The notes below the pieces were generated by a model. The model ran no database searches and was not told the DNA's origin. It saw only the letters and a program-made list of their open reading frames with translations. A DNA stretch of 62,914 nucleotides, the filler included, from Stramenopiles sp. TOSAG23-3 (Eukaryota), in assembly GCA_900128585.1 (NCBI GenBank). It is 19 parts of 19 records of this genome, joined end to end, with 100 filler letters (N's around TTAATTAATTAA, not from the genome) between each part and the next. Parts side by side here need not be neighbours in the genome. Positions count along the whole stretch, not along the records: positions 36,535 to 39,747 come from LT644355.1; 18 more parts are not named here. One strand, 5' to 3'. Below, piece by piece: positions 36,654 through 39,747 of this stretch; the stretch's first letter is position 1; the number at the start of each line of letters is the position of its first letter. The translations under genes were made by a program, and so were the position numbers.

Positions 36654-39600
36654 ATGGGTCAATTGAAGACCATTATTGCGAAGGAGGATAAGACGGAGTT
36701 TCAAACACGCAAAATGAATGGTACAATTGACGCTCGCCCGACCATTACAGAATGCAAAAACGAAATCAAACGGTTGCACGACAGTATTGAAGGCGAATCC
36801 GTTGCCGAGTACTGCGCTTCGCGAAGCGAGGAAGAGCAGGAATGCTACCGCTTGCTGCGTCACCACGAAGACCCGTACGACGCGCTTGTCGCAACGAGCC
36901 CAGGATCGAATTGCTCCGTTTTGGAACATGTCAAAAACGGGTCCAGGCCCACGTTTCCGGGTTCTCCGTACATCTCGACGTCTTTGAACCGTCGGTTTGT
37001 GATTTATTATGGGTTGAAGCGAATGATTGAAAAAACGTACGAACGCGAGGAGCCCGAGGGCTACGTTCAACGTTTTGTAAAGATTGACCTATCCAAGCTC
37101 GGCACCGAGGCCAGGATAATCGATATATCTTCGAAATCTAAATTTTTATCTTACGCCGATACGGCCAGGTCCAACATGGCCCAAAATTTTGCGGAAAGCG
37201 CGCAGGAAGTGCTGATAAAAGGACGGATTCCAAGGGAAGCCATGGCAGGCGTTTACTCGTTCAAATTCACTGGTCAAAGCAATCCCAAAAACTTGCTCTA
37301 CAAGTTGCTTGACGGCGTTGCAGGACGGTGTTCCAAAGTGAGCCTCGTCTCGAACAGCAACAAGGCCCATGATTACAATGCATTCGCGCGCGTTTTCAAC
37401 CAGAATTTCAAGTCGAAAGAAACGGAAGATGCCTTGGTCGAACTAATGCGAGTACGATCAAGCGCAACGAAACTTTACGACGACGGCTCCATCCAAGTGT
37501 GGGTTGCGTCTTGCAAACAAAGGACGGAGCTCGGCAGTTCGTTCCCCGCTCTTTGCGTTCGAGCAGAGGCTCCTGAGTTTGATACTGATGCTCACATCCC
37601 TTTGGAGGACTACGCGGGCTTGGAAATGAAAGACGTGACAAAATGTGTACAAACGTGCAGTTGGATTCTTGAGAGAGAAAAACGAGTGTGCGTGTACTGC
37701 ACGGCAGGAAGAAACCGTTCCGTTGCAGTAGCTGCAAAGCTGCTTATGGATCTCCAAAATGAAGGGTTTGAAAATGTGTACCGTCAGATTAAGAGGAAGC
37801 GGAAGGTCGGAATTCTCAAAGTTACACAAGAAGTTTTCGAGGAGGAAGGGAAACAAAAGGCGGAAGAAGCGCAAAGGCAGAAGGCCAACGCGGAGAGAAA
37901 AAGTAAGGAGAAGGCAGACGCGAAGAAGAAACGCAAGGAGGAGGCAGCGAGGAGAAAGACCGTTACGACGAAACTCTGTTTTTCAATACATGCATCCATG
38001 TCAGAAACAGGAAAAGAAATCAAAATAAACCCCACAATTGGCGTGTGTAAAGTTGATAGAGACGTTGAGGACCTTGGGTCCCCTGTGTCCATCAAGCGCA
38101 GCATCGCTGGGATAGGGAGCGACGGAGATCACGTGCTTCATTCCCCATATTATTATTATTTAAAACGCCACTGTTCTCCTGTGCTAAAATTTGAATGCAC
38201 ATCAACCGAGCCCCTATTTGAACGCATATCAAAATGGAGATCCGTCTTTCGCTTGGAACCTTCAAGCTTTTGTGACTCCCGCTTATCGGGCAAACAAGTA
38301 TTTCTTATGGTCGACAACGACAACAAGAATCAAGGGGATTATGTCGTGTCCGTGTACTTTCAATACCGGGATAAAGTCATGGACAGGCAAGCGGTGCAGA
38401 GAAACCCGTCCGCACAGCGTTACCTAATATGCGACCTTGATCACACCTTGATCCACTGCAACAAGAACATAGGAGAGCGTCGTCGACCGGACAATGAGCA
38501 GCTAGTCTTTATTAGTGGGTATGGAGAGGTAGTGGTCAGAAAAAAGGCTGGAGATTTCCTTCGATCCGCCCAATGGATGGGATTTGAAATATTTGTATGC
38601 ACAACTGGAACTCGATATTACGGCATTAAAATTTTCGAGCACCTTTTTCCTTTTCTGGGGCTTGATGAAGATCATATCTTTTCGACGAGAGACTACTTTG
38701 GAGACGAAGAGGTGTGCAAAGGTTATAGCCGACCTGCAAACGATTTTTTTGCAAAAAAGGATATTGACTTCATGATCCCTTTGCAAAACGGTACGACAAA
38801 TAAGAACACTCTTATCATCGATAATACTGTGTTGGCATGGGTGGCCAAGCAGTCTGACCATGTGATTCTTGTCACTAAATATGTCGCAGGGCGTGCACCA
38901 AACGATCAATCGATGGAAAGTTTGAAGAGCAAACTACTCAACCTACTGAACAAGAGTAAGGCCTTTAATGAATATCTTGAGGAAAGAAACAAAGAATTGG
39001 ACCATGCTCGTCGTCGTCACAACACTAGGCGCATTTCAACACTCGAGAATTGCATTAACCTTAAGAAAAGTTCAGTGAACGGTCTTGTAGACCATTGGTC
39101 TGAAATCGTAAAAGAGGCTCAGGCTCAGCTACTGACTGGGAACCCGAATTTACAACGCCAGAAGCACGAGAAACGTTTATACGTTGTACTCGATGAATCT
39201 TGCACAAAATGGCAGGGTTTGAAAAAATTTGAGCATGAATTAAAGGCCCGCTGTGACGTGGAGGGTATAGCTCTACTAAAGTCTGATATAAAAGAGCTTA
39301 AGAAGGGAGAAGATCTTTTTTACCATTCCCGTCGGGAAGTCAACAACCCATGGGTGCTATTGTCACTAAATCAGACGAAACGATACAAGGCGATGAGAAA
39401 AAATAGGAAGGATGGGACTAGCAATTCATTAATTCTAGACCCGAACAAGATCGTTTTTACGGGTCGGTCACACAGAGATACGAGTCTTAGAACAATTTTG
39501 GAACAATGTGGCAACACGAAGGAAAGCACACTGTCTAAAAAAATAGGGGATATCGAAAGATCACGGAGTAGGTCCGTTTCCCCAGAACGAAAGACCTCCA

Positions 39601-39747
39601 AAACCTTTGAGGTTAGTGATGAGTCGAGCAGCAGTGATAAGCCCCCGGCCCGGAAGTACCTGGTCAATCCGTTCTACCGGGGCTCCTACGTCTTTGACCC
39701 GTCCGCGAACACCTCCACGTTCAAGGGGAAGTGGGCCATGACGAAAG
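36654..39747 (+). CDS. Multidomain protein: ADP-ribosyltransferase-like + dual-specificity phosphatase-like + FCP1/NIF HAD phosphatase (3' truncated)
   Basis: YR..HVKNGS..SPYISTS..QEVLIKGRIP; VYCTAGRNRS (CX5R); LICDLDHTLIH, CTTGTRYY, LIIDN. Confidence 0.8.

Follow-up and report, generated by a model that had tools for sequence, protein, structure and literature searches.

The stretch of DNA analyzed here, 62,914 nt from Stramenopiles sp. TOSAG23-3 and called the window below, encodes on one of its contigs a protein that joins an ADP-ribosyltransferase (ART) domain of bacterial toxin type to two different phosphatases, a dual-specificity (cysteine) phosphatase (DSP) and a NIF phosphatase of the FCP1/SCP type. 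Our reading, to which we give a probability of about 0.6, is that this is a real, expressed multi-enzyme regulator of a marine protist, in which a toxin-derived ART would transfer ADP-ribose and the two phosphatases would act on the same targets or on neighboring ones. From the N terminus, the predicted order is an R-S-E mono-ADP-ribosyltransferase, the DSP, a lysine- and glutamate-rich (K/E-rich) linker, a region without assigned fold, the NIF phosphatase of the HAD type, an arginine- and serine-rich (RS) stretch and at least one further module. The pairing of ART with DSP recurs in other proteins, whereas the combination of ART, DSP and NIF was found only in the window protein; the remark of the initial annotation that it did not recognize the architecture calls for qualification on account of the pair.

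The protein is read from a single open reading frame (ORF) on the plus strand (36537..39746) that fills its entire 3213-nt contig (36535..39747) with no stop, against 45 and 65 stops in the other two plus-strand frames. From the first ATG at 36654 to 39746 it runs for 1031 codons. A single frame of more than 1030 codons had been annotated, and to this we add only the correction that it is open at both contig ends. The protein is for certain truncated at the 3′ end and perhaps also at the 5′ end, and since the frame is open upstream to the contig start, ATG 36654 is not established as the start codon. The window itself is a pseudo-molecule of 19 contigs of about 3.2 kb, sorted by falling length and joined by 18 identical 100-nt linkers (N44-TTAATTAATTAA-N44, all 18 the same), two of which, at 36435-36534 and 39748-39847, flank the contig in question. 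An ORF end at 39803 was rejected as the stop of the gene because that stop belongs to the linker.

The ADP-ribosyltransferase domain and its family

The N-terminal domain has the ART fold of the R-S-E (cholera- and pertussis-toxin-like) clade, which is established as far as prediction can establish it. The ART module (aa 28-267; 36735..37454, on the plus strand like every feature of the protein) consists of an N-terminal helix, a catalytic core with a predicted pertussis-toxin-S1-like fold (aa 61-201; 36834..37256) and C-terminal helices. An AlphaFold2 model of aa 20-280, built on an alignment of 86 rows (A1), had a predicted local distance difference test score (pLDDT) of 84.1 and a predicted template-modeling score (pTM) of 0.82. 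Compared with the PDB by Foldseek, the model gave 17 matches at E <= 0.001 among 323, with pertussis toxin S1 first (E 8.9e-5, at most 25% identity), followed by EcPltA, CARDS, the A1 chains of cholera toxin and LT, and the Rhs toxins TreX and TreTu. The best match in VIA-align was again pertussis toxin S1, with NAD+ (Z 11.0, root-mean-square deviation 3.1 Å over 147 residues, 20-23% identity). The Z scores were 10.4-11.0 for pertussis S1, 9.9 for EcPltA, 9.1 for TreX, 8.4 for Scabin, 7.9 for ScARP, 7.7 for cholera A1 and 7.3 for Tpt1; 33 of 321 chains had Z >= 8, and the ART fold was present in all 50 of the 50 entries listed. An R-S-E ART at the N terminus had been annotated from motifs, and the model bears this out.

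The bacterial ART family to which the domain belongs is already known, with an entry in Pfam (DUF7587, PF24494) and one solved member. An exhaustive HMMER (phmmer) search of 1.84 billion representative proteins with aa 20-280 as query returned 84 proteins at E <= 1e-3, four of them at <= 1e-10. DUF7587 is matched by 70 of the 86 rows of A1 (best E 3.7e-14), and the A1 family profile matches the solved chain 9zdm_B, RhsF-CT of Chromobacterium violaceum, at E 3.4e-21. RhsF is an Rhs toxin delivered by the type VI secretion system, and its RhsF-CT tip has an ART fold, its toxicity is lost when R1403, Y1456 or E1497 is changed, and its immunity protein blocks the active site (bioRxiv 10.64898/2025.12.06.692724). 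We found no mention of eukaryotic homologues of RhsF-CT in that part of the preprint (10.64898/2025.12.06.692724).

RhsF-CT and the window ART belong to the same sequence family and share the motif order YR, H..GS, ISTT/S, a Tyr at +11 and EVL. The Arg-Ser spacing is 42 in both (R1403 to S1445; Arg66 to Ser108), and Y1456 lies at S1445 +11 as Tyr119 does at Ser108 +11. Compared with RhsF-CT, the window ART module is enlarged by about 25 inserted residues following the STS helix and by additional helices. The two also differ in setting: RhsF-CT is a C-terminal toxin tip with an adjacent immunity gene, whereas the window ART occupies an N-terminal or internal position in a protein that exceeds 1031 aa, has two phosphatases and shows no immunity context. 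The layout of a polymorphic toxin, an extreme C-terminal domain followed by an immunity gene, is accordingly not that of the window protein, in which more than 760 residues of other enzymes follow the ART. The group of pertussis S1, PltA/EcPltA and cholera/LT A1 resembles the window ART in fold and in the profile-aligned His, STS and catalytic Glu strands; the window ART differs in having no Q/E at -2, no A-B toxin context and no secretion signal, and the sequence similarity is marginal.

The order of the motifs, Arg66, STS and Glu185, is as in the R-S-E clade, and the near-invariant positions of A1 are Arg66, Glu72, His92, Gly96, Ile107, Ser108, Asp157 and Glu185. Arg66 (36849..36851) lies in motif 1, YR (YRLL), and corresponds to R1403 of RhsF. 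In the profile, His92 (36927..36929) pairs with the pertussis toxin S1 His that stands ahead of the STS motif, and Ser108 (36975..36977) opens the STS motif (YISTS; Ser108-Thr-Ser110) 42 residues past Arg66. Tyr119 (37008..37010) is probably equivalent to Y1456 of RhsF, judging from spacing and the printed alignment. Glu185 (37206..37208), the predicted catalytic residue of the EVL strand, lines up with the Glu on the catalytic strand in both RhsF-CT (9zdm) and pertussis toxin S1, although the A1 profile aligns the strands bearing His, STS and Glu only weakly with those of pertussis S1 (E about 0.5). The initial annotation had located YR at 36846, YISTS at 36969, QEVLIKGRIP at 37203, the Cys of YCTAGRNRS at 37698 and DLDHT at 38433, and all five positions are exact. 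With its Arg, His, Ser, Tyr and Glu sites all preserved, the ART domain probably still binds NAD+ and transfers ADP-ribose.

One feature does weigh against an active transferase. The Q/E-x-E pair is absent, the window protein reading S-A-Q-E185 with Ala at -2, and the family consensus is likewise without Q/E at that position. The eukaryotic domain might therefore have lost its transferase activity and serve as an NAD+ or ADP-ribose sensor, or as a structural regulator of the adjoining kinase or phosphatase. This would agree with the loss of the His and STS positions in the close relative P0005, with the replacement of the motif-1 Arg by His in the subclade of P0021, P0030, P0062 and P0080, and with the position of the ART domain, which is always beside signaling enzymes. 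We regard such a loss as very unlikely in the window protein, since Arg66, His92, Ser108, Tyr119 and Glu185 are all kept, the Glu is near-invariant in at least 90% of the 86 rows, and Q/E at -2 is missing from the bacterial members too, although RhsF owes its toxicity to its Arg, Tyr and Glu. The four relatives of that subclade, which are of eukaryote type, keep the Glu, and their change amounts to a shift toward an H-type first motif.

On the bacterial side, the family is partnered with PT-HINT (six of the 86 rows), RHS, YD-shell and intein/Hint domains, and the window ART has relatives at C-terminal tips of bacterial polymorphic toxins, as the note of toxin-type ancestry in the initial annotation implied. 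A scan of bacterial genomes with a smaller alignment (A2) gave 60 candidate stretches, and 30 of these were confirmed by tblastn with the window ART domain (25-44% identity). The confirmed loci lie in Bacillota, Pseudomonadota (including Chromobacterium, Xenorhabdus and Snodgrassella), Actinomycetota, Bacteroidota and Spirochaetota; none of 96 candidate stretches in metagenome contigs and none of three in viral contigs was related. At two bacterial loci, L016 and L012, the ART ends a 5′-open ORF of at least 1449 aa and an ORF of 101 or 108 aa stands directly next to it, a toxin-immunity layout in view of the ART tip and the adjoining small ORF. These small ORFs (L016, 4368-4673, 101 aa; L012, 4368-4694, 108 aa) lie within 20 nt of the end of the Rhs-type ORF or overlap it, and are candidate immunity genes. 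R-S-E ART tips of polymorphic toxins are known, with occasional transfer to eukaryotes, for example pierisin (PMC3482391).

The eukaryote-type partners of the family, counted over the 86 rows, are protein kinase (seven), DSPc (two), MORC S5 (two), zf-CW (two), PWWP (one), Med26 (one) and LRR (one). Two relatives carry a DSP domain about 110 residues after the ART, as the window protein does: P0042 is kinase-DUF7587-DSPc, and P0016 is kinase (cut)-DUF7587-DSPc-Med26. A third, P0003 (738 aa), is kinase-ART-LRR, and its aa 329-556 are 86% identical to aa 28-267 of the window protein. All three fall in the same starred group of the ART tree as the window ART. They differ in having a protein kinase directly upstream of the ART, where the window contig has the last helix of a kinase end (RPTITECK...) and a non-kinase leader, and the DSP domains of P0042 and P0016 are only about 30% identical to that of the window protein over 64 residues. 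A NIF domain is present in none of the three. Among the remaining relatives, P0050, P0054 and P0021 combine MORC S5 and/or zf-CW with a kinase and an ART-family stretch, which passes the Pfam E cut only in P0054, and P0069 is PWWP-DUF7587. A NIF partner was found neither among the 25 of 34 partner families listed nor in ten long relatives that were scanned. DUF7587 is named in none of the papers searched, and a search of titles and the beginnings of abstracts, with supplements and the 2015 natural-history review of ARTs outside its coverage, found no description of a eukaryote-type kinase-ART-DSP or ART-DSP-NIF protein.

The relationship between the two sides was approached with a quick, unrooted IQ-TREE tree of 98 rows and 129 columns, composed of 82 of the 86 A1 rows (four rows had under 95 domain residues and were left out) and 16 hand-picked loci of the 30 bacterial ones. 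One starred set (SH-aLRT 95) unites the thirteen eukaryote-type rows with the unlabelled P0007 and P0018, and the 16 bacterial rows lie on the opposite side. The window protein and seven others were labelled eukaryote-type from their partner domains. The single tree group of eukaryote-type copies agrees with one ancient exchange with bacteria and later domestication, and the direction of transfer would have been from bacteria to eukaryotes because the bacterial side is broad. A large group of short, mostly stand-alone proteins of the ART family (about 130-300 aa; for example P0009, P0027, P0033 and P0013) occupies a 30-row branch of its own (SH-aLRT 89).

The phosphatase domains and the integrity of the fusion

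Both phosphatase domains score above their Pfam gathering thresholds and have intact catalytic motifs, in agreement with the CX5R and DxDxT motifs originally annotated. The DSP domain (DSPc, aa 309-384; 37578..37805) scores 36.9 bits against a gathering threshold of 33.5. Its CX5R loop, YCTAGRNRS, contains Cys349 (37698-37700) and Arg355 (37716-37718), and the Asp of EDYAG (aa 318-322), within the DSP domain, is a candidate general acid. The best sequence matches of the DSP in the PDB are small protein tyrosine phosphatases and DSPs, and are weak (E 0.064). No close relative of the segment that contains it (aa 268-435) was found in an index of 5.8 billion proteins, and with aa 200-500 none of 2038 candidates among shorter proteins was related. 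The NIF domain (aa 591-764; 38424..38945) scores 54.5 bits against a threshold of 21.8 (E 1.4e-14) and covers profile positions 3-153 of 160. Like FCP1/SCP phosphatases it has the DxDxT motif, here DLDHT at 38433-38447 (aa 594-598; Asp594 and Asp596), and a downstream DN motif, IIDN at 38814-38825 (aa 721-724). It differs from FCP1 in its NCBIfam scores, 26.7 bits for FCP1_euk (TIGR02250) against a cut-off of 135.25 and 32 against 139 for the Dullard-like family. An FCP1 orthologue was rejected, the score being far below the FCP1_euk cut-off and a BRCT domain not being established. No relevant PDB sequence match to the NIF region was found by phmmer.

A different substrate had been proposed in the initial annotation. 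The protein could be an enzyme that processes nucleic acid ends or modifies nucleic acids, with the ART acting on DNA or RNA in the manner of Scabin, ScARP, pierisin or a Tpt1-type enzyme and the phosphatases acting on phosphate ends. The structural matches of the ART model do include Scabin (Z 8.4), ScARP (Z 7.9) and Tpt1 (Z 7.3), and in Pfam the window protein weakly matches the Rit1 DUSP-like domain (E 0.02). The P-loop C-T-A-G-R-N-R-S, moreover, has a pattern ('CT.G.NR[ST]') which we take to resemble that of RNA triphosphatase-type cysteine phosphatases, and we count it on this side. The best folds, however, are protein-modifying toxins (pertussis S1, Z 10.4-11.0; EcPltA, 9.9), the HAD domain matches the protein-phosphatase NIF family and not a polynucleotide phosphatase family, and the partners of the relatives are protein kinases (seven of 86 rows), so that we hold a nucleic acid substrate to be unlikely. 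ScARP is also one of the folds closest to RhsF-CT according to the authors of the RhsF work (10.64898/2025.12.06.692724), which favors such a substrate.

The modules of the protein occur elsewhere in other company. A word-index homologue search of the 5.8-billion-protein index found only two close relatives of the window protein, P0002 and P0003, among 7995 candidates, and no full-length form; aa 436-1031 as query gave only P0002 and a 32-residue match to P0089. P0002 (787 aa) is 99% identical to aa 436-977 of the window protein and has other termini, with a different 112-residue N terminus and an RS-rich C terminus. The last 32 codons of the contig (39651-39746) are 91% identical to aa 39-70 of P0089, a protein with bromodomain and BET domains. 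The G+C content of third codon positions (GC3) is, module by module, 0.60, 0.54, 0.46 and 0.78. Modules are passed between genes of this organism or population. The N-terminal module of P0089 matches no Pfam family, and sub-threshold ESM Atlas leads (0.84-0.85) point to eukaryotic, diatom-rich clusters, from which we draw no taxon.

The integrity of the fusion was assessed by aligning contigs of four public runs (X3-X6) to the window contig, with uncovered parts in X4-X6 not taken as absence. Run X3, a marine metatranscriptome, comes from a different sample and a different study than the likely source. One of its contigs, 3779 nt long, covers 36868-39747 with no difference, extends about 900 nt past the contig end and crosses the ART/DSP, DSP/linker, linker/NIF-half (37954) and NIF-half/tail (39587) boundaries; the fusion is therefore not an assembly chimera, and the joined domains of the initial annotation have independent support from this one contig over 36868-39747. 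Another X3 contig (1238 nt) matches the window contig over 36535-36709, where it ends, and has about 1063 nt of further sequence upstream. A chimeric join, produced during whole-genome amplification or assembly, would explain why each half occurs elsewhere with other partners, why there are sharp break points at 36733, 37954 and 39587, and why close relatives of the DSP segment (aa 268-435) are missing elsewhere, and the source runs are small (7-8 million letters). Such a join would nevertheless have to recur in an unrelated sample and study with 0 differences over 36868-39747 and across the boundaries, and the frame is open across every junction; we consider this explanation extremely improbable.

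A possible nuclear regulator

In the reading that we prefer, the ART domain, derived from a bacterial toxin tip, would transfer ADP-ribose from NAD+ to a target, and the two phosphatases would take phosphate off the same target or neighboring ones, so coupling ADP-ribosylation to dephosphorylation, much as the initial annotation had proposed with its writer and two erasers. The site of action may be nuclear, with chromatin or the machinery of transcription as the target. This location is suggested by the partners found across the family, namely kinase, DSP, MORC, zf-CW, PWWP and Med26/TFIIS-N, and by the window protein itself, with its FCP1-type phosphatase, basic clusters, RS stretch and a tail in common with a BET bromodomain protein.

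A number of observations tell against this reading. The enzymatic activity of all domains is predicted, and the nuclear location is drawn from partner domains and sequence composition. The DUF7587 score of the window protein (23.2 bits for the whole protein, 26.0-26.3 for the domain alone) lies below the gathering threshold of 27, and for RhsF-CT, the best-studied member of the family, neither transferase activity nor target is yet shown in the available part of the preprint (10.64898/2025.12.06.692724). The tree was made by a quick method from 129 columns and is unrooted, and five of its eukaryote-type labels (P0005, P0030, P0039, P0062 and P0080) were given from alignment features and are partly circular. 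In the C-terminal half, an AlphaFold2 model of aa 436-977 from a two-row alignment reached a pLDDT of only 33.9, with no usable fold, and the BRCT_3 match is below threshold (E 0.029-0.15). The protein is a mosaic whose modules recur in other genes beside different partners, and the NIF half also occurs with different N and C termini, both in P0002 and in DNA contigs of runs X4 and X5. These contigs have the P0002 form, and their agreement with the window contig breaks off precisely before 37954 and after 39587. No independent contig spans 36721-36867 in precisely the window form, X3 branching after 36720, so that the 5′ junction is carried by the source assembly. Contigs from an RNA library show presence and cannot prove transcription. 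Lastly, no eukaryotic gene is physically linked to the contig.

The other contigs of the window hold multiple genes, which lie on both strands, and their products are typical of eukaryotes (part of eIF3c, a eukaryote-type glutamate-cysteine ligase, a desaturase-cytochrome b561 fusion, a CDPK-like kinase and a Mutator-like transposase), from which it follows that the assembly is eukaryotic genomic DNA. Annotation of the fusion as one eukaryotic protein is likely correct, with the contig physically unlinked to the eukaryotic genes of the others. The same lack of a link to host genes leaves room for a giant-virus or mobile-element gene, a multi-enzyme conflict effector of the 'polyvalent' type in place of a host nuclear regulator, and the sharply bounded modules with their differing GC3 (0.60, 0.54, 0.46, 0.78) and the membership of the ART in a toxin family would accord with it. 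We nonetheless find a viral or mobile origin quite unlikely. None of the three candidates in the viral-contig scan was related, PADLOC gave no match and PHROG only a weak DSP match, and the contig resembles the others in codon usage. The MORC S5, zf-CW, PWWP, Med26 and BET/bromodomain partners of the relatives, moreover, are typical cellular chromatin domains. The codon usage of the contig, being inside the range of the other contigs (relative synonymous codon usage, r 0.44 vs 0.23-0.73), does not discriminate between host and foreign origin. The antiviral role that had been proposed from the motifs found no support in PADLOC.

A wider version of the host-regulator reading can be put forward only tentatively, and we judge it rather doubtful as a whole. 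A bacterial ART toxin domain would have become a mono-ADP-ribosylation writer directed at chromatin or RNA polymerase II in marine protists, hard-wired to kinases and phosphatases in several arrangements (kinase-ART-DSP, MORC/zf-CW-kinase-ART, PWWP-ART and ART-DSP-NIF), with its modules reshuffled at 86-99% nucleotide-level identity. This would create a new crosstalk of ADP-ribose and phosphate, possibly directed against viruses or transposons.

Eukaryotic R-S-E ARTs comprise, to our knowledge, the extracellular ecto-ARTs together with a small number of toxin-like enzymes, pierisin among them, and intracellular ADP-ribosylation is otherwise carried out by PARP-type (H-Y-E) enzymes and sirtuins. 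If the regulator reading is true, the window protein would represent a second, independent route to intracellular ADP-ribose signaling and a clear case of the domestication of a bacterial contact-weapon toxin. With characterization of the bacterial family just beginning, the eukaryotic fusion partners also offer testable hints as to what the ART family modifies. The SidE-family effectors of Legionella reportedly join a mono-ADP-ribosyltransferase to a second enzyme that processes the ADP-ribosylated product. The likeness to the window protein is one of principle only, an R-S-E ART in one chain with hydrolases that could act afterward; SidE proteins have a phosphodiesterase and not phosphomonoesterases and are secreted bacterial effectors, and no sequence relation was seen in any search.

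Remaining features of the protein and the window

The leader of the window protein (aa 1-27; 36654..36734) contains no recognized domain, and its 5′ junction is the one without independent support. Homology to the kinase-linked form starts at about 36733, and the sequence at 36720-36722 reads G|GT, which may mark either a paralogue branch or a splice site; the 30-letter loose end of X3 after 36720 was not found elsewhere in the window. An ESM Atlas search with aa 28-400 gave no usable match.

Between the two phosphatases, the K/E-rich charged linker (aa 385-436; 37806..37961) has 17 K/R and 11 D/E among its 52 residues, in keeping with the charged stretch of the initial annotation, and is preceded by KRKRK (aa 380-384). 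A coiled coil and a nuclear localization signal may be present in aa 380-436, as we infer from its character. The region without an assigned fold (aa 437-590; 37962..38423) begins the module that is 99% identical to P0002. Beyond the NIF domain lie the weak BRCT_3-like stretch (aa 802-853; 39057..39212) and the RS-rich stretch (aa 969-977; 39558..39584), the 99% identity to P0002 stopping after 39587, and then the start of a further module (aa 1000-1031; 39651..39746), cut by the contig end.

As the linkers that join the contigs are artificial, genes adjacent in the window are not genomic neighbors, and any feature spanning a linker, or any gene neighborhood read across one, is an artifact. 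An Rfam scan of the window gave no match. In the plus-strand ORF at 34692-36434, the eIF3c match starts at profile position 317; another plus-strand ORF (33235-34386) lies about 300 nt upstream on the same contig, and an intron or a frameshift may split eIF3c. An ORF of 792 aa on the minus strand (23849-26224) matches a Mutator-like transposase (E 3.3e-7). In a 658-aa ORF on the plus strand (59729-61702), a lipid desaturase domain is fused with a eukaryotic cytochrome b561 domain.

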